From the IMG/VR virus record IMGVR_UViG_3300014658_000007, positions 1-41,308 of that record: 41,308 nt of DNA. One strand, given 5' to 3'. The DNA comes from a virus (taxonomy: Duplodnaviria > Caudoviricetes). The notes beneath the pieces are model-generated. The model was not told where the DNA came from. It searched no databases and was given only the letters and a program-made list of their open reading frames with translations. The stretch's first letter is position 1; every line of letters begins with the position of its first letter. The translations under genes and the position numbers were made by a program. Below are positions 14,673 to 25,433 of this stretch, one piece after another.

Positions 14673-14977
14673 CGCAGCCCCCAAGAGCCATGGCGCCAAG
14701 CCAGGTACAGCAGGCCCCAGCCTACGGCCTGCCCGATGAGGTAGCCGATGGCATCCACCGTGGAGCTCTTCCACGTCTCGCCCGACTCGTACCTCAGGTC
14801 GTACCAGTACGCCTTGACCAGCACGGCGGGCAGCAGGAAGCACGAGGCTACGAGCATGGGTTGCGCGGTATGGGCGAAGAGCGCCGGCACGACTGCGGCA
14901 GCGGCACCGATGGCCACGTGGTCGCCGTCGGCCAGGTTCTGCACGTTCTCCATCCAGTCCCCGGGCTTGGCCATCAC
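14669..14977 (-). CDS. Small membrane protein
   Basis: About three hydrophobic segments; GGAG RBS; coupled to its neighbours. Confidence 0.6.
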   Translation of the reverse strand: MMAKPGDWMENVQNLADGDHVAIGAAAAVVPALFAHTAQPMLVASCFLLPAVLVKAYWYDLRYESGETWKSSTVDAIGYLIGQAVGWGLLYLAWRHGSWGLR

Positions 14978-15243
14978 TCCTCCCCTTCGTCCAGCGCGGC
15001 GCTTTCGAGGGCCAGTGGCTCAGCAGCGGCGCGCTTGCCATGCTTGGCGGCGCCGCCCTTACGCCCGGCCTCGCGCGCCTCGTCGCTCGAGAACTTGTGG
15101 GCGGTGCCGGCCTGGTGGGCGGCCTGGCCACCCTTGCGCGCGATGGCACTCACCACCTTGGGGTCCATCGAGGCAAAGCCGCGCTTGCCCTTGGGTTTGG
15201 GCTCGGCGGCGGGCGGCGCGGGCGGCTGCTGGTCTTGGCTCAT
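14974..15243 (-). CDS. KGG-repeat general stress protein (YciG/GsiB/con-10-like)
   Basis: RGFASMDP...IARKGGQAAH...HKFSSDEAREAGRKGG; ATG at 15243. Confidence 0.85.
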   Translation of the reverse strand: MSQDQQPPAPPAAEPKPKGKRGFASMDPKVVSAIARKGGQAAHQAGTAHKFSSDEAREAGRKGGAAKHGKRAAAEPLALESAALDEGEE

Positions 15244-15253
15244 GTGTGGGAAC

Positions 15254-15436
15254 CTAGCGCGGCCGTTCTGGCACCGGTAGCCCAAGCTTACGGGCCGCCT
15301 CGTCAAGCACCTTGCGCGTGGCTATGTGGATATCAGCGCCGCTCTCCCACCTACGTATTGTGCGCTCGTGGATGAGCGTGACGCCAGCCAGCTTGCGGCG
15401 CTCATGCGTGCTCAATAGAGCAGGCTTCTTGTCCAC
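15254..15436 (-). CDS. Small HTH (Cro/XRE-like) protein
   Basis: RRKLAGVTLIHERTIRRWESG helix-turn-helix pattern; start uncertain (15436 or 15496). Confidence 0.55.
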   Translation of the reverse strand: MDKKPALLSTHERRKLAGVTLIHERTIRRWESGADIHIATRKVLDEAARKLGLPVPERPR

Positions 15437-15598
15437 CTTTGCGGGTGCAGTTTGGTGAGCCTTAGTGCTAGCCAATATGCTGGCACATACGTACACCTAT
15501 GCTCAGCAGCAGCGCAAGGCAAAAGTGCCACGCACGTTGTACACGCGGCCACGTGGCGCGCGCGCAGCACTGCGCGCGTGCTGCTGTACACGCTGGCG

Positions 15599-18500
15599 TT
15601 ACGCCTCTTCGGCTTCGGGCTGCTCGCCATCGAGTTCATCGATAACAGGCACGGCAACGCACCGGCAATTATGCGCTACAATACCGCCGGCCGCATACCA
15701 CCCTACGGCGGTGGAGAGGTTGTAAACCCAGCCATGAAACTGAAGCCTGTCGATGCTGCATACGCGCGCAAACTGCTGGACGCCGGCAAGACCTTGAAGG
15801 AGGTTGCCACGCTGCTTGGCATCAATCCCGACAACCTGAGCAAGAAACTCCGCGCTGTCGGCGTGCGCACCGACAGGCGAGTGGGCGCCGTGCGGCCCGT
15901 GCTCGTCGTGGATATGGCCCCCATCATTGCCGCATACGAGGCCGGCGAGAGCCTGCTCGCCATCGCCAAGCGCACCGGCTTTGACCGCGTGGTGCTCACA
16001 CCCAGGCTGAGGCGAGCCGGTGTGCATATCCGAGGCGGCACCGAGGCCAACTTGCTGCGCATGGCCCGCATGAGCACCAGCGAGCGAGAGGCTCTGACCG
16101 ATGCCGCTCATGCTGCGGTCCGTGGCACCACACGCACTGCAGAGTACCTCGCCTATCGTGCCACCACCAAGGGGCGCCGCATTGGTGCCGGCGAGCGTGA
16201 ACTGCTTGCGGCGCTTACTGCTGCTGGCGAGGTGCCCGAAGGACAGCGGGCGTGCGGCAAGTACAACATCGACATCGCCTTCGGTACCATCGCCGTGGAA
16301 GTCTGCGTTGGCCGAGCGGCGAGGGCAAAGGACGCCATCTACCTCCAACGCTGCAAATACCTCGCTGATAGCGGGTACACGGTCGTGCTTGTGTTCGCAC
16401 GCAGGGCCGATGTCGTCCTCGGCAACCTGTACAACATCGTCCGTGAGTTGCAGCGCGCCAATGGGCACCCAGCCGCGGCGCGTGAGCACCGGGTGGTGAG
16501 GTGTCGCTCGGAGCGTTTTGCCCGTTACCAGAACGAGCGAGGTCAGTTCGCCGTCGTACCAACGCCGGAACGCTTCAGTTACACCGTGAGCGCACTCGAC
16601 CTCGGTGCTTGACGGGAAGCACTGAAAGTCCTCCCCGGGATTGTTCAGTTCGCCATCGCCGGTATCCGGCGGGTCGTCGTAGCTGAATACCTTGCCGTGC
16701 AGCTCGCGGTGCCCAGGCCTGACACGCTCGTCTTGCGAAGTGTTCCACACATACTTGGTGACCCCAGCGGCCTGCTGCCGCGTGCGCGTGAGGTCCGCCG
16801 AAAGTTTCAACGTTTGGTCACGAGCTATCAGCTGCGCCCGGCTCGCGCTCACGGTGCCGCGCAGCTGCAGCGCTTCGGTGACGGTCTCGGGCTCGGCCCC
16901 AGCGCGCAGCGCCGCCAGCCGCTTGGCCCCCACGGCCTCACCCGCCGGCATGCCCTCGTAATCCTCGAGCACCTGGCGCACTTGGCTGAGGTAGGTGCGG
17001 CTGGCGTTGGTGATGAGGGCGACGTTCTCGCTGCGGGCCTGGTCTATGGCCCTCTGCAGCGCGGGCACCTCGCCCACGTGGATGCCCAGCAGCTTGGTGC
17101 CGGTGGCGGTGGTGCGGTGCACCTCGGTGGCCATGCGGTTGTAGGCCTCTTTGACCTTGCCGCGGACCCACTCGGCCGTTTGGCCCTGTAGGCGGATTAC
17201 CCGGCGCTTGGCCTCGCCCGTACCCGGCGCGTCGTGCCGCTCGGTGGGGCTCGCCGGCGCCGCGCCGAGTTCGCGGTGGACGATGTGCAGCACCGCCTTG
17301 TGCAGGGCACCCTGGATGGCCACCAAGTCTGCCACGTACCGAGCCTCGGCGCGCTGGCTGGCCTTGAGGTGCTGCGCCTTGGCGCGCAGCTGGTCATCGC
17401 GCCACCCGGTGGCATAGATGGCGCGCGCCTGCGCCTGAGCTTTGGCCTTGCTCTTGTACACCTTGCCCGTGGTGCCCCATTGGTAGCCGCCAGGCACCGG
17501 GTGCGCGGGGTCCTGGTGCAGCGGCTCAGGCGGCTGCACGAGCCGCAGTACCGGGTGGCTGGCCGCGGCGAGCGCATCGAGTGTGTCGGCGTGGGCCAAA
17601 GCGAGGGCCTCATGCTCGGCCTGCATTGTGGCCATGCTGAGCTGTAGTTCGGCCACAAGCGCCTGCAGTGCATGTGTGCCCGCTGCCTGCTGGCCGAGGC
17701 CACCCAGTGCCTGCAGGCAAGGCCCAATGTGCGGCACGTGCTCGCCTGCCGCAGCCTGCCCGAGGGCTGCGACGGCGCCTGCCGCGGCCCCCGCAAACAA
17801 TGGCGGCACGGCATGGCCAGCCACGCCCTGAGCAAGCCCAGCGAGCCCCTGGCGCGCATACCCGTGAGTGAGCGCCGGCTTGGGCGGGGGCGCCAGCGGC
17901 AGCGGTACAACTGCGGGCGCAGCCATGGGGTGCGCATGCGTGGGCTTTCGCCGTGGCTTGGCGTCCGCACGCGGCGTGCTGGCCTTGGTAGCCGCCTTGG
18001 CCAGCCTGCGGCGCCGCTCGCGCTCTCGCTCGTGGCTTGGGTTGGTAAACGGTTCGTCGCTGCCCGCTGGCGCCCCAGCGGGCCAGTACACGGTGGCGCT
18101 GCGTGAGTTGAGCTGGCCAATGCGCTGGGCTGCAGGGCCCTCAAAATACCCCCCATGGCCGCCGTAAAAACGGCCCACGGCTGCCTGTACGAACCCAGCT
18201 AGCTGCTGCCCGGCTGCGCCCCCAATGTACAAGTACCCATGGGCCGCCTGGGTGAGGCCACCCAGGCGCTGCGCGGCGCCGCCGCCGATGTAGATGTAGC
18301 CCACCGAGGACTGCACCAGCCCACCGAGTACCTGGGTGGCCGTGCCGATGTAGGCCGTGGCGCCGGTAGCGGCCTGGCGCAGGCCTGCAAGGTGCTGCGC
18401 GGTGGGGCCCGAGTAGACAATGGCACCCGCGGCGGCTTGTACGAGCCCAGCGAGGTGCTGCACCACGCTGCCAGCAAACAGCTCGCCGCCTGCGGCAGCC

Positions 18501-19018
18501 TGCACGAGCCCACCCAGGTGCTGCGTGGCCAGCCCGGTAAAGGCCTCGGCGCCGGTGGCCGCCTGCCTGAGCCCACCCAGCACCTGGTAGCTGGTGCCTG
18601 CTGCCGGTGCTTGGCCAGGCGCGTCCGGCACTGCGGCGCGCGGTGGCGGTGCCGGCGGCCAGCTGGCTTGCGGTGCCACTTGCAGCAGTAGCGGCAGCGT
18701 GTACCGGGCCACCGCGGGCGGTGGCAGCGCTGGCCCAGGCCCCTCACGCGGGCCGCGTGGGGCACTGGTAACAGGTGCGCCAGCCGGTGGGGTGCGTGCA
18801 CCTGGGTACCCAGGCACCGCCACCAGCTCGGGCCCGCGGGTACCCGGCGCCGGGAACCACGCAGGTGCAGCAGCAGGGCCGGTGGGCGCCCCATCCCGCG
18901 GGCCGCGCAGTACGAGCCCGGTGGGCGCCCCATCCCGCGGGCCGCGCCCAGGTACGGGCGGCGCCGCCGTGGTAGCGGCGGCCGCCCGTAGCTGGCGCAG
19001 CAGCAGGAGGAGCGACAC
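15599..19018 (-). CDS. MuF / SPP1 gp7-like minor head protein with a long N-terminal repeat extension and an intein
   Basis: RAQLIARDQT, KYVWNTSQDERVRPGH, GKVFSYDDPP; removing the intein restores PGEDFQ-CRC. Confidence 0.85.
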   Translation of the reverse strand: MSLLLLLRQLRAAAATTAAPPVPGRGPRDGAPTGLVLRGPRDGAPTGPAAAPAWFPAPGTRGPELVAVPGYPGARTPPAGAPVTSAPRGPREGPGPALPPPAVARYTLPLLLQVAPQASWPPAPPPRAAVPDAPGQAPAAGTSYQVLGGLRQAATGAEAFTGLATQHLGGLVQAAAGGELFAGSVVQHLAGLVQAAAGAIVYSGPTAQHLAGLRQAATGATAYIGTATQVLGGLVQSSVGYIYIGGGAAQRLGGLTQAAHGYLYIGGAAGQQLAGFVQAAVGRFYGGHGGYFEGPAAQRIGQLNSRSATVYWPAGAPAGSDEPFTNPSHERERERRRRLAKAATKASTPRADAKPRRKPTHAHPMAAPAVVPLPLAPPPKPALTHGYARQGLAGLAQGVAGHAVPPLFAGAAAGAVAALGQAAAGEHVPHIGPCLQALGGLGQQAAGTHALQALVAELQLSMATMQAEHEALALAHADTLDALAAASHPVLRLVQPPEPLHQDPAHPVPGGYQWGTTGKVYKSKAKAQAQARAIYATGWRDDQLRAKAQHLKASQRAEARYVADLVAIQGALHKAVLHIVHRELGAAPASPTERHDAPGTGEAKRRVIRLQGQTAEWVRGKVKEAYNRMATEVHRTTATGTKLLGIHVGEVPALQRAIDQARSENVALITNASRTYLSQVRQVLEDYEGMPAGEAVGAKRLAALRAGAEPETVTEALQLRGTVSASRAQLIARDQTLKLSADLTRTRQQAAGVTKYVWNTSQDERVRPGHRELHGKVFSYDDPPDTGDGELNNPGEDFQCFPSSTEVECAHGVTEAFRRWYDGELTSLVLVTGKTLRATPHHPVLTRRGWVPIGALQLTDDVVQVAEDDIGPACEHKHDRVPAISEVFAALEVDGVLCPRRSANADFHGDGTEGDVDVVLAARPLSFGHLASSSKRRKQFTLAGTNAAPLGGGTIGEVLCSACGATDRSMSGIGQSLSLAGAHAGHAQQVGLGAASDMHTGSPQPGCEHHAVKAGALGDGEQALAGLVCGNDGGHIHDEHGPHGAHSPVGAHADSAEFLAQVVGIDAKQRGNLLQGLAGVQQFARVCSIDRLQFHGWVYNLSTAVGWYAAGGIVAHNCRCVAVPVIDELDGEQPEAEEA
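15673..15719 (+). promoter_or_regulatory. Putative promoter, hairpin and RBS for the antisense gene inside the intein
   Basis: TACAAT at 15677-15682, stem ACCGCCG(15683-15689)/CGGCGGT(15706-15712), GGAGAGG at 15713-15719, ATG at 15734. Confidence 0.5.
15734..16612 (+). CDS. HTH-HTH + Vsr/DUF559-like endonuclease-family protein encoded antisense within the intein
   Basis: Two HTH repeats (KTLKEVATLLGINPDNLSKKLRAVGV; ESLLAIAKRTGFDRVVLTPRLRRAGV), then GERELLAAL...Q...GKYNIDIAF...IAVEV...R.KYL..SGYTVVLV. Confidence 0.75.
   Translation: MKLKPVDAAYARKLLDAGKTLKEVATLLGINPDNLSKKLRAVGVRTDRRVGAVRPVLVVDMAPIIAAYEAGESLLAIAKRTGFDRVVLTPRLRRAGVHIRGGTEANLLRMARMSTSEREALTDAAHAAVRGTTRTAEYLAYRATTKGRRIGAGERELLAALTAAGEVPEGQRACGKYNIDIAFGTIAVEVCVGRAARAKDAIYLQRCKYLADSGYTVVLVFARRADVVLGNLYNIVRELQRANGHPAAAREHRVVRCRSERFARYQNERGQFAVVPTPERFSYTVSALDLGA
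18160..18586 (-). repeat. Seven 21-aa tandem repeats Q-x-L-[GA]-G-[LF]-x-Q-[AS]-[AS]-x-G in the MuF N-terminal extension
   Basis: QVLGGLRQAATG, QHLGGLVQAAAG, QHLAGLVQAAAG, QHLAGLRQAATG, QVLGGLVQSSVG, QRLGGLTQAAHG, QQLAGFVQAAVG at 63-nt spacing. Confidence 0.85.
18879..18947. repeat. Perfect 30-bp direct repeat, 39-nt period (RGPRDGAPTG twice)
   Basis: CCGGTGGGCGCCCCATCCCGCGGGCCGCGC at 18879-18908 and 18918-18947. Confidence 0.9.
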
Positions 19019-21181: not shown

Positions 21182-23605
21182 CTACGCAAGAGCAGCCTCA
21201 TGCACCGCCGCCATGTCTTCGTGCTTGGCGGCGGCTGCGTCCTGCTTGAGGTTGTGCAGCCGGCCAGCGAGGTACCGGTGCGCCTGCGCCGCCTGCGTGT
21301 GCGCCTCGGCGGTGCCGGTGGCGCGTGCGTGCTCGCTCGCGGCGCGGGCCTCGGCGAGCGTCCACTTGCGTGGCCCCCCGTCTGCCTTGGCATTGGCGCC
21401 CGCCCACGAGGGTGCCCGCACGCTGCCCGAGCGCGCCCCGCTCTTGCCCTTTTTCTGGGCGGTATGAAGCTCGTCCCACGGACCGTTTTTCACATGAACT
21501 TCAGCAACATACGCGAGCAGCGGCGCCCCCAGCGCCTCGTGCGCGAGGTAGCGGTGGTGGCCATCGACGATGCGGAGCTTGCTCTCGCCCGGCACTTTGA
21601 CGAGGACCGCAGGCTTGCGGATGCCCTCTGGGTCGCCCTTGAGCGCCAGGCCGACCTTCTGCTTGAAGCTCTCGCTCGTGCCGTCGTGGCTCGCCCGCCA
21701 CTGCGCCCGGTTGCTCGAGTCGATATCTTCGGTGGGCACCTCGAGTGGGCCATCCCAATGCGCCGCCAGCACCCAGCCAAGGTGGCTTGCCGGGTAGTCA
21801 TCCAGCAGCTGCTGGAATACAGCCTTCGCCTGCTTGCCGTCCTGGCGTGTGGCCACAAGCGCGTCGAGCACCAGCAGCGCCGCGCTGTCCTCGGCCGCCA
21901 TGAGGCTGTCCGCCTTGGCCTGCTTGGCCACCTCTGGCTTGCCCGGCTCGCGCCCGGCCTCGCCGCTGCTCGCCGGCGTGCTCTTGCCCAGCTGCGGCAG
22001 CGCCCCGGGGTCGATGTTGGTGCCCGTGGTGCCCATGAGCGGCACGGGCGCCTTGGGGCTGAGCGGCTCGCCCTGCCCTGGGGCGTTCACCGCGGGGCTG
22101 TTCTGCGGCGGCGGCTCGTTCTCGTACGGGTCGAACATGAGGCCCGCCTCGAGCACCTCCTCGCGCGCCTCTACGTCGAGGTTGGGGTACACCTCGGTGA
22201 GGTCCACGGCGACCTCCTCGGGCTTGACCACGCCCACGCCGATGTACGCCACGTCCCGCTGCGCGTTGGCTAGGCGCGTCGTGGCCAGCTCGGCGTCGGT
22301 GGGGCTCTGCAGCGGGCGGAAGTGGATTTTCCAGTCTACCAGCTTGCCGCGCAGCGGGCCCTTCTTGGCCAGCCCCAGCAGCTTCATGACCCGTATGAGC
22401 TTCGGCCCGAGCTCGTTCTTCTGCAGGCTCTCGATGGTGTCGTACCACTTGCGCGTGTCGCTCTCCCCAGTGGCGTTCATGCCCTGAGGCGCCCTGCCAA
22501 AGAGCTCCGTAGCAGGCATGTCGGCGGCCGCGCTGAGGCGCAGCATCATCACCTGCAGCAGCTCCGGGATACCCGAAAAGGGCGTGGGCTGGCGCTCGAA
22601 GCTCTCGGCGTTCTTGCCATCGGGGCCGCCCGCGTCGACGGCAATGCCGCGCACCACCGAGCGCGTCATCTCCATCATCTGCATGCGGGCAAGCAGCGCC
22701 GCGCGCTGGCCAGTGCTCACCGCTTTGATGAGGCCCTGCAGCTTGAACACGCCCTGGCTGGCGTCCTGCAGCAGGTACATGGCCGAGTCGAAGCTCGTGT
22801 CGAACTGCCGCATGGCGTCGTACACGCGCTGCAGCACCGACCAGGACCAGCCCGCGAGCTGCTGGCGCGTCACCACATCCGCCGGGTTGCCGTCAAACCG
22901 GATGACGCGCGACTCGTGCACGAGGCTCACCTGCGCGCCGCGCTGGCGTAGCTCACGCTCGCTGATTTTCTCGACGGGCCCGTGCTCGTTCCAGCCATAC
23001 CCCGCGATGGCATTGCTGATGAGGTAGATTTGGGGCCGGCCGTACTTGTAGCCGGGGCGGCTCGCGGCCATGGCGGCGTACTGGCTCTGCACGTAGCTGT
23101 ACCGCCGGTCCACCAGCGCGAGGCTGTAGAAGTCGCGGATGTTGTTTTCGTTGAGCGGCTCGGTGAGCTCGCCGCCATCGTCGATGGCCATGATGTTGAG
23201 CGCGCCGCCGTACAGGCGCCCCCACCGCGCGCCCTCGCGGAAGTTCTCGTGCAGGTCGAGGTACTCGGTGGCCCAGTCCTCGGCGTCCTTGACCTCCTGC
23301 TGCTTGAGGGGCGTGCCGTTGACGCTGCCCTCGAGCTCCCAGCCGCGGCGGAACTGCTCGTCGACGCGCTTGCTCACAATCTTGGAGGCGATGTCCGAGC
23401 CGTTCATGAGGCTCGTGAGCTCCTGGTCGAGCACCCGGTAGACGGGCCAGTAGTGGGCAGCCTTGCTCTTGTCGATGCCCCATACGCCGAGGCCCGTTTG
23501 CTGGTTCACCCATGCGTCCTGCCGGATGCCTCGGCCACGCTCGGCCCATGTGTCCACCTCCACATCGGTGCCAAAAGGCCGGCCGTACGGGTCGAGTAGC
23601 GCCAT
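21182..23605 (-). CDS. Portal protein (DUF1073 type) with C-terminal ParB/Srx-like and His/Ala-rich extensions
   Basis: DAWVNQQTGLG, RLYGGAL, YGRPQIY, VHESRVIRFDG, MPATELFGRAPQGMNATGESDTRKWYD, FRPL; then PAVLV...IVDGHHRY. Confidence 0.9.
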   Translation of the reverse strand: MALLDPYGRPFGTDVEVDTWAERGRGIRQDAWVNQQTGLGVWGIDKSKAAHYWPVYRVLDQELTSLMNGSDIASKIVSKRVDEQFRRGWELEGSVNGTPLKQQEVKDAEDWATEYLDLHENFREGARWGRLYGGALNIMAIDDGGELTEPLNENNIRDFYSLALVDRRYSYVQSQYAAMAASRPGYKYGRPQIYLISNAIAGYGWNEHGPVEKISERELRQRGAQVSLVHESRVIRFDGNPADVVTRQQLAGWSWSVLQRVYDAMRQFDTSFDSAMYLLQDASQGVFKLQGLIKAVSTGQRAALLARMQMMEMTRSVVRGIAVDAGGPDGKNAESFERQPTPFSGIPELLQVMMLRLSAAADMPATELFGRAPQGMNATGESDTRKWYDTIESLQKNELGPKLIRVMKLLGLAKKGPLRGKLVDWKIHFRPLQSPTDAELATTRLANAQRDVAYIGVGVVKPEEVAVDLTEVYPNLDVEAREEVLEAGLMFDPYENEPPPQNSPAVNAPGQGEPLSPKAPVPLMGTTGTNIDPGALPQLGKSTPASSGEAGREPGKPEVAKQAKADSLMAAEDSAALLVLDALVATRQDGKQAKAVFQQLLDDYPASHLGWVLAAHWDGPLEVPTEDIDSSNRAQWRASHDGTSESFKQKVGLALKGDPEGIRKPAVLVKVPGESKLRIVDGHHRYLAHEALGAPLLAYVAEVHVKNGPWDELHTAQKKGKSGARSGSVRAPSWAGANAKADGGPRKWTLAEARAASEHARATGTAEAHTQAAQAHRYLAGRLHNLKQDAAAAKHEDMAAVHEAALA

Positions 23606-23738
23606 GTGCGGGCGAAGCTAGCTGCGCCACGTTTTACCGGGCTTTTGCCACCGAGCCGCCCACGGTGCGCCCACGCTCGGCCCACCGCGCGGCGGCGTGG
23701 CGGGCAGCGCTCGCCGCTACCTTCGCGCGCACTACCCC
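23606..23738. promoter_or_regulatory. Divergent promoter region between the portal and protease genes
   Basis: CTAGCTTCGC on - (23621-23612) and CTACCTTCGC on + (23717-23726), each just upstream of a start codon. Confidence 0.65.
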
Positions 23739-25433
23739 ATGCCCGTGTACCGGCTTGACCTGAGCAGCGGCGAGGTGCGCGAGCGCAAGCGCACACCCCA
23801 GGGCGGCCTCGTGGCGGATGCCAGCCTCACACGCACCGGCGTCTTCCCCTACCGCAACGAGGATGGCTCGCAGCGGATGGAGCTGCGCCACCCTGACGAG
23901 GTCTTCCACCCGGACAGCCTCGCCACATACCCGCTGGCGCCGGTGACCGTCGACCACCCTGGGCGGGTGGGCCCGGACAACTGGCGTGACCACGCGGTGG
24001 GCACGGTGGGCAAGGACGTGCGGCGGGACGGCAGCTACGTGCACGGCGAGCTGCACCTGCAGGATGGCAAGACCATTGAGCGCGCGCTCAAGGGGGCCGA
24101 GGAGCCCGGGGCGCTGCGCGAGATCAGCTGCGGCTACCACTGCGACCTCGACCCCACGCCGGGGGACTACCAGGGGCAGCACTACGATGCGGTGCAGCGC
24201 AACATCCGCATCAACCACGTCGCCGTCGGGCCGCCGGGCTGGGGCCGCATGGGCGCCGGCGCGCGCATGCACCTCGACAGCGGCGCGGCGGTGAGCGGCG
24301 AGCCCGTTACGGCGAAGGAGTACGCGAGCCTCGCCGCGGCTGCGGAAGAGGACAGCAAGGCGGCCACCGAGGCGAGCAACGATGCGGCGCGCGCACGCAC
24401 CACCGCCGTCGAGCAGGGCGCGCACGGCAAGCCAGGCTCGCTCACGGCCGAGGAGGGCTTCCACCGCAGCCAAGTGCACGAGCGCACGGCGGGCGAGCAC
24501 CACGCACGGGCCGTGCGCCGCCACGTGCTCGCGGCTGCCGCCGCAGATGGTGCGGGGGACGACGGATCGACGCGGCACCACAAGCGCTTTGCGGCCATGC
24601 ACGCGCACCAGGTCCTGCAGCACGCCAAGAACGCGAACGGCGCGTGGGACCACAAGGCGCACCCGCTGGCGGATTACGAGGCACTGGCCAAGGACGGCAT
24701 GGCTGCAGACCACGCCGAAAAGGGCGCCGCGGCGGGCACCTATGTTCGCCCCGTACCGGTAACGGCCACCACCGAGGCTCACACCATGACTGAGGAAGAG
24801 CGCAAGGCACTCGAGAAGCTGCAGGCAGACCTCGCCGAGCAGCGGGCACGGGCCGACAAGCTCGAGGCCAAGCAGCGCGAGGACGCGGGCGAGCTCACCA
24901 AGCTGCGCGCCGAGAACGACATGCTCAAACTGCAGAGCGAGAGCGCCAAGCAGGACAGCGTGAGCGCCGAGGAGCGCGCCAAGAGCGACCGCAAGTTCCG
25001 CGACGCCGTCCGCGAAACGGTGGCGCTGCACGCGGACGCCCGCATGGTGTTCGCCACGGCCGACGACCCCGCTGGCGCCAAGTGGGAGCCGGGCGACAAG
25101 GGCGCGGACCATATCCGGCGCGACATCGTCAAGCACCTCGAGCCGCGCGCCACGCTCGTGTACGACGGCAAGGACCTCGAGGGGCCGGCGCTGCTGCCTG
25201 TCTACCAGCTGGCCATCGGCCGCAAGCGCGAGCTCGACAAGCAGCAGGCCGAGGCCCAGGCGGCCAGCCATGCGGCCGAGCAGCACGAGGACGGCGCCGG
25301 CATGGGCGGCGAGGGCGACGATGACGGTGACGCGCCTGGCTCGGCCGACAAGGCCCGCAAGGACATGGTCAACCGCAAGCGCGACGCCTGGAAGAAGAAC
25401 AAGAAGGACGCCAAGCGAGGCAAGGCGGCCTAA
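23739..25433 (+). CDS. DUF2213 prohead protease/scaffold fusion
   Basis: TPQGGL...TRTGVFPY, PVTVDHP, EISCGY, QRNIRINHVAV..GR.G..ARMHLD; coiled-coil C-terminal half. Confidence 0.88.
   Translation: MPVYRLDLSSGEVRERKRTPQGGLVADASLTRTGVFPYRNEDGSQRMELRHPDEVFHPDSLATYPLAPVTVDHPGRVGPDNWRDHAVGTVGKDVRRDGSYVHGELHLQDGKTIERALKGAEEPGALREISCGYHCDLDPTPGDYQGQHYDAVQRNIRINHVAVGPPGWGRMGAGARMHLDSGAAVSGEPVTAKEYASLAAAAEEDSKAATEASNDAARARTTAVEQGAHGKPGSLTAEEGFHRSQVHERTAGEHHARAVRRHVLAAAAADGAGDDGSTRHHKRFAAMHAHQVLQHAKNANGAWDHKAHPLADYEALAKDGMAADHAEKGAAAGTYVRPVPVTATTEAHTMTEEERKALEKLQADLAEQRARADKLEAKQREDAGELTKLRAENDMLKLQSESAKQDSVSAEERAKSDRKFRDAVRETVALHADARMVFATADDPAGAKWEPGDKGADHIRRDIVKHLEPRATLVYDGKDLEGPALLPVYQLAIGRKRELDKQQAEAQAASHAAEQHEDGAGMGGEGDDDGDAPGSADKARKDMVNRKRDAWKKNKKDAKRGKAA
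24786..25433 (+). CDS. Possible nested in-frame scaffolding protein
   Basis: CTATGTTCGCCC motif at 24740, GAGG, then ATG 24786 (MTEEERKALEKLQADL...) at the start of the coiled coil. Confidence 0.45.
   Translation: MTEEERKALEKLQADLAEQRARADKLEAKQREDAGELTKLRAENDMLKLQSESAKQDSVSAEERAKSDRKFRDAVRETVALHADARMVFATADDPAGAKWEPGDKGADHIRRDIVKHLEPRATLVYDGKDLEGPALLPVYQLAIGRKRELDKQQAEAQAASHAAEQHEDGAGMGGEGDDDGDAPGSADKARKDMVNRKRDAWKKNKKDAKRGKAA

Follow-up and report, generated by a model that had tools for sequence, protein, structure and literature searches.

The DNA discussed here is a 41-kb virus record (IMG/VR IMGVR_UViG_3300014658_000007) analysed over its whole length of 41,308 nucleotides, which I will call the window; its genes include those for terminase, portal, protease, capsid and tail sheath, and its sequence is supported by four DNA runs, two of them possibly its source. 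On the minus strand at 15599..19018 lies an open reading frame for a MuF (SPP1 gp7-like) head morphogenesis protein of uncertain start, assigned from the list of open reading frames and a Phage_Mu_F match (PF04233, aa 701-800, E 1.3e-17). The roughly 700 residues ahead of the MuF domain contain Ala/Gly-rich repeats and a short segment of YQWGTTGKVY type, and may represent a fusion. The head module is unusual in its order, with terminase, MuF and portal separated by sugar-modifying genes (two epimerases and an aminotransferase), and the portal gene (21182-23605, minus strand), whose product has a long C-terminal extension, is transcribed divergently from that of the head maturation protease (23697-25433, plus strand). 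Two small minus-strand open reading frames follow MuF (14974-15306 and 15254-15496), one encoding a small HTH-like protein and the other a protein with KRGFASMD/KGG repeats, which I take to be stress-protein-like.

Within the MuF gene sits a class 1-type intein of 318 aa (15668..16621, minus strand), inserted at PGEDFQ|CRC, with its C1 codon at 16619-16621 and its C-terminal His-Asn ending at 15668. A preliminary description of this DNA had reported an intein with complete splicing blocks at exactly this place and was correct on each count: block B (TPHH), block F (VYNL), the penultimate His, the terminal Asn and Cys+1 make up the class 1 motif set. In the structural model both ends exceed pLDDT 90, giving a confident Hint domain that matches Hint/intein chains at Z 9-12.6 (NpuDnaB: Z 12.3, rmsd 1.4, 107 residues aligned), while the middle has low pLDDT. 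No folded endonuclease was found in this sense-frame insert, for which no solved fold scored above Z 2.6, with a fold still possible in a region of such low pLDDT; Intein_splicing is the sole Pfam match inside the intein, and Pfam and dN/dS together give no sign of a conserved in-frame endonuclease domain. The four DNA runs contained no intein-less joint.

Opposite the intein, the plus strand carries a 292-aa open reading frame (15734..16612) running from ATG to TGA in exact codon-against-codon register with the intein, its stop ending 6 nt before the C1 codon, again as previously described. Elsewhere in this GC-rich window shadow ORFs reach 575 and 818 aa, and since long shadow ORFs are common in it, the length of the antisense frame is by itself no evidence; the antisense gene is real on the evidence of conservation, frame-specific selection and a fold match. 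Searches with the plus-strand protein recovered 90 loci, 66 of them distinct (one being this phage), and in 66/66 the longest opposite frame lies in the same register and is open, although family members are related, so that count tests here and below overstate significance. Most of the 50 hosts scanned match MuF or related minor-head families, one is a metallopeptidase and several have no host-family match. A pattern built on the sense strand only, which shares the block spacing of this intein family and so does not survey MuF inteins in general, found 120 loci (106 distinct), and 71 of the 72 with both ends called carry the antisense gene, the remaining one being a mini-intein.

Several side observations belong here. 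The same element occurs in hosts without the CRC motif (L053, L068, L409, L419, L438, L506, L511), among them a phage metallopeptidase (L053), an unassigned host (L068) and H-x-x-GR|C sites, all possible new host genes. In a canonical-looking intein of the control set (L235) the antisense frame of that register stays open for 220 codons and may represent another antisense nuclease. None of the five GenBank phage records opened (Fosterous, MSW-3, RCIP0054, LP31 and Malisha; L525-L529) annotates the antisense gene, and some intein-bearing minor-head proteins (L089, L090, L036, L075) have C-terminal toxin-like or NUDIX domains according to Pfam.

Purifying selection switches strand along the element: the nuclease frame is constrained in the middle and the intein frame at the ends, which is the distribution that the preliminary reading predicts. 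Over 18 independent pairs, dN/dS in the middle is 0.31 and 0.29 for the nuclease frame versus 1.01 and 0.85 for the intein frame, and in the end regions it is 0.10 and 0.24 for the intein frame; column entropies cross over between the frames in the same pattern, and the nuclease frame is free of TTA, CTA and TCA codons, as it must be for both frames to stay open. The C-terminal tail of the nuclease (16436..16612, plus strand), modelled as a beta hairpin, is overprinted on intein blocks A/B, and there the intein frame has a dN/dS of 0.24 and the nuclease frame 0.86.

The middle of the intein had been read beforehand as antisense shadow, and its dN/dS and low pLDDT bear this out, except at one dual-coded island (16286..16300, both strands), where the catalytic strand of the nuclease, T-I-A-V-E189, lies opposite F108-H-G-D-G112 of the intein. 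The intein residues are conserved in 102 (F108), 110 (H109), 105 (G110), 107 (D111) and 87 (G112) of 116 members, far beyond what the opposite nuclease residues force (z 8-18.5). FHGDG persists in three mini-inteins from which most of the nuclease is gone; two of these have stops in the antisense frame and synonymous changes by which the nuclease Glu becomes Lys, and the survival of the motif in these nuclease-losing forms means that it is constrained as intein protein. In the intein model FHGDG is placed in a loop between two strands, adjoining the Hint domain. The mini-inteins themselves (L152/L408, L411 and L414; 161, 175 and 185 aa) derive from the family by internal deletion, and L411 retains a 153-codon antisense frame with the WH motif.

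The antisense protein is modelled with high confidence (pLDDT 93.7), and the two HTH repeats and Vsr-like core that had been proposed for it from its letters both reappear. The repeats (aa 8-41 and 61-94; 15755..16015, plus strand) are supported by weak Pfam HTH matches, the helices of the model and HTH structures at Z 5-6.4, and the Vsr-like nuclease domain (16178..16480, plus strand), with E154, Q171, D180, E189 and R206 and no His at 196, by structure matches and column counts. The model aligns with Vsr (1cw0) at Z 10.7 (rmsd 2.5, 111 residues), with 3hrl at Z 9.9 (profile match E 1.4e-8) and with the homing endonuclease I-Bth0305I (3r3p) at Z 8.8. Foldseek, by comparison, returned no match at E 0.001 or better for the nuclease or the intein model, and a single-sequence PDB search gave a designed HTH repeat protein as its sole match. 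Active-site residues were mapped by spacing and profile alignment, not by residue-level superposition.

The EVCVG of this copy, standing where a motif ending in His is usual, had raised the suspicion of a divergent or inactive enzyme. Divergent it is: 64 of 116 members carry E-x-x-GG-x-[WF]H and the other 52, this copy included, have a variable loop instead, with Ala196 here where the general-base His is expected. E154, Q171, D180 and E189 are kept in 52/52 His-less members, and the final Asp of EDxHD is absent, in both classes, from the four commonest residues at 202-206, with R206 instead. Nuclease dN/dS among His-less pairs alone (8 pairs) is 0.24-0.27, and the His-less members form two groups of 47 and 5 rows (support 94 and 96, in a quick tree that included the loop columns). 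These comparisons indicate that EVCVG marks a large His-less branch and not individual decay, and the case for inactivity is weakened by this purifying selection and by the recent homing pattern of one member, discussed below. The nuclease His also covaries with a His at extein position -3: 63 of 116 members have both, 52 neither, and the one exception has a non-MuF host, while in an independent set (n=91, 8 rows left out) 54 have both, 25 neither and 12 are discordant. Concordance over both sets is 194/207, with Salmonella phage LP31 a further exception, but this rests on only about two origins and may be lineage history rather than cause.

How mobile are these elements? The site is empty in 67 of 70 distinct MuF relatives of this host, and phage MSW-3 has the intein when PEi21, 92% identical in the distal flank, is without it. 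The His-less inteins of Klebsiella phages RCIP0054, KpTDp1 and P12620-1 are 97.8-98.8% identical, versus 88-91% (distal) and 78-90% (last 150 nt) for their N-exteins, and the distal N-extein of RCIP0054 is 92-94% identical to two empty alleles versus 88% to intein-bearing ones. This is the pattern expected of recent homing, seen in a carrier only 33% identical to the protein of this phage and not in this copy. Among His-less elements, the hosts of one MuF subfamily fall in two separate well-supported places in the tree, with AU tests that are borderline (p 0.047, and 0.123 for the other grouping). The His-less branch likely still spreads.

What the element displays, namely two open frames in register, selection that switches strand, predicted folds for both products and a patchy distribution, is in my view probably explained by a two-strand homing intein, in which one set of codons encodes an intein on one strand and a Vsr-fold nuclease on the other, the pair being inherited together. 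It counts against homing that the protein lacks both the His and the last Asp of EDxHD, the equivalent His being the presumed general base, and that ordinary phage recombination could also move the block. The best-surviving alternative, although an unlikely one, holds that the His-less protein is catalytically dead, retained at MuF as a DNA-binding regulator or as a blocker of competing nucleases, with the intein spreading by ordinary recombination; it would account for HTH repeats that are intact and for a GGxWH loop that 52 members have replaced by a hypervariable one, and His213 of I-Bth0305I is indeed the presumed general base (Taylor et al., 2011; PMC3239194). It accounts poorly for acidic core residues and a Q171 that are invariant in the His-less set, for constraint on the nuclease core equal to that of His-bearing members (dN/dS 0.27 vs 0.30) and for the recent-homing pattern in His-less phage inteins.

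Candidate signals for expression of the nuclease lie within the intein codons themselves. A putative -10 box, TACAAT (15677..15682, plus strand), is antisense to the Ile-Val codons of block G, and a putative Shine-Dalgarno sequence, GGAGAGG (15713..15719, plus strand), to the N-L-S codons of block F. Both had been pointed out before, and across the family the idea stands up well: the strand opposite the block F His codon has ATG in 83 of 122 non-redundant members and GTG in 17 of 122, the adjacent Leu codon ends in C 85 times (36 expected), and the consensus places TGGAGG 8 nt ahead of the ATG. TAnnnT stands at the block G codons of 60 of 122 members (74 allowing a one-codon shift) versus 12 of 87 canonical control inteins, and at GC >=50% in 50 of 100 versus 2 of 24; 48/122 (~40%) lack the -10 core even with the shift. 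The extein-based codon background is biased by a general A/T shift, so the control inteins were added together with an internal control, in which the deciding, synonymous third base is A in 66 of 115 Ile/Val/Leu codons at -3 versus 70 of 438 at neighbouring positions. It is in this copy that the signals are weak: a consensus sigma-70 scan gave 0 complete promoters, there is no extended-10 TG and no -35 (the family logo has no -35 consensus either), and the gap from Shine-Dalgarno to ATG is 14 nt versus 8 nt in the family consensus because the block F His sits two codons further out. Contigs from three of four metatranscriptome runs cover parts of the element, but being strandless and covering other genes too they are uninformative on antisense transcription. 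I would infer from these family-wide biases that the nuclease is likely expressed independently, from embedded signals.

This weakness invites a second alternative, slightly less likely than the dead enzyme, in which the family is active and this copy alone is decaying or no longer expressed. Its nearest protein (P0003) is only 64% identical, leaving no relative close enough for a copy-specific dN/dS, which suits that reading; against it, the frame is intact, the core residues are all present, the two-codon shift of the ATG is common to three other loci (L010, L097 and L124), and P0003 keeps the same protein at that distance. That the plus-strand frame is a chance shadow of a GC-rich gene, as the 575-818 aa shadow ORFs of the window might suggest, can be rejected with near certainty on frame-specific selection and the Vsr fold match, along with the 66/66 register, the confident model and the missing TTA, CTA and TCA codons.

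The preliminary description knew of no precedent for this architecture, and here it has been overtaken: Gosselin, Arsenault and Gogarten (bioRxiv 10.1101/2025.01.02.630785) report full inteins of actinobacteriophages that carry a VSR-like nuclease in anti-sense, state that minor-capsid inteins carry only non-canonical nucleases, and match theirs to 1CW0 (Z 10.6, compared with Z 10.7 here) and 3R3P. As in their inteins, the present one has an antisense Vsr-like ORF within a contiguous full intein, a minor-capsid (IPR006528) host and an unstructured in-frame middle, and its protein (P0001) has matches of about 31-32% on the strand antisense to Gordonia phage MuF genes. The layout is thus already known, and in the literature, searched by other terms than His-less or FHGDG, intein, anti-sense and VSR-like came together only in that preprint. 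The parts of its main text considered here mention no promoter, ribosome site or other embedded signal, no His-less branch, His/extein covariation or His-less homing pattern, and no FHGDG island; the family found here is also far wider, with 1,655 clusters at E 1e-30 or better (by match alone) and 113 cultured-phage records.

Other comparisons are instructive as well. I-Bth0305I and the EDxHD homing endonucleases, as presented in the portions of two papers drawn on here (Taylor et al., 2011, PMC3239194; Dassa et al., 2009, PMC2677866), likewise join N-terminal helical DNA-binding repeats to a C-terminal Vsr-fold with conserved E, Q, D and an extra Glu, but they retain the His and final Asp that are absent here, and they sit in group I introns, between split-intein halves or alone, whereas this nuclease is overprinted on an intact intein. 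Because the EDxHD motif fails at two positions, I do not file the element in that family, even though it would work like one of its members. Anti-sense or out-of-frame LAGLIDADG inteins (Gorbalenya, 1998, as cited by bioRxiv 10.1101/2025.01.02.630785), such as the cyanobacterial dnaX intein, whose nuclease is described as lying in a +2 frame (bioRxiv 10.64898/2026.09.14.751524), are likewise full inteins in which the nuclease has a frame of its own and purifying selection is frame-specific, but they encode a different nuclease family. With canonical LAGLIDADG/HNH inteins the element has in common its splicing blocks, Hint fold, conserved insertion site and patchy distribution; unlike theirs, its nuclease is not part of the spliced protein and therefore need not wait for host-gene expression and splicing.

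As a two-strand homing intein, the element would operate as follows. The intein likely splices itself out of MuF at C1, Asn318 and Cys+1, while a short antisense transcript would start from the block G -10 box, and its translation would begin at the ATG opposite the block F His codon. The nuclease would bind DNA through its HTH repeats and cleave it in a metal-dependent manner with E154, D180 and E189 and no general-base His, cutting or nicking empty MuF alleles, after which repair would copy the unit in. Whether it cuts or nicks is a subtler matter: I-Bth0305I cuts a pseudopalindrome as a dimer whose formation depends on His213 (Taylor et al., 2011; PMC3239194), and monomeric nicking is for that reason the favoured mode for the His-less branch, although by analogy only and as a possibility I would hold tentatively. 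More speculative, and on balance doubtful when its three parts must hold together, is a joint reading in which the His-less branch would be a Vsr-fold homing nuclease of distinct mechanism, probably nicking as a monomer; in which it would have arisen at least twice on the move from H-x-x|C sites, whose empty alleles read CA-N7-TG, a small inverted repeat that would suit a dimer, to asymmetric PG-x-x-x-x|C sites, which do not read so; and in which the two-strand gene would be co-adapted, blocks F and G doubling as promoter, ribosome site and start codon, and the catalytic strand of the nuclease as FHGDG, an intein motif on which the splicing domain would now depend.

The embedded signals would explain how an antisense intein nuclease could be expressed, a question left open by the Gosselin preprint in the parts considered, and these claims can be tested directly in pairs of cultured phages of which one has the intein and the other lacks it. 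If it is true that a His-less Vsr-fold enzyme still homes, its active site would be of a new variant, and the enzyme a compact nickase or cutter with site specificity. Finally, the element suggests that the antisense-nuclease intein may be the usual type in MuF head genes and not a rarity, with selection keeping both frames.
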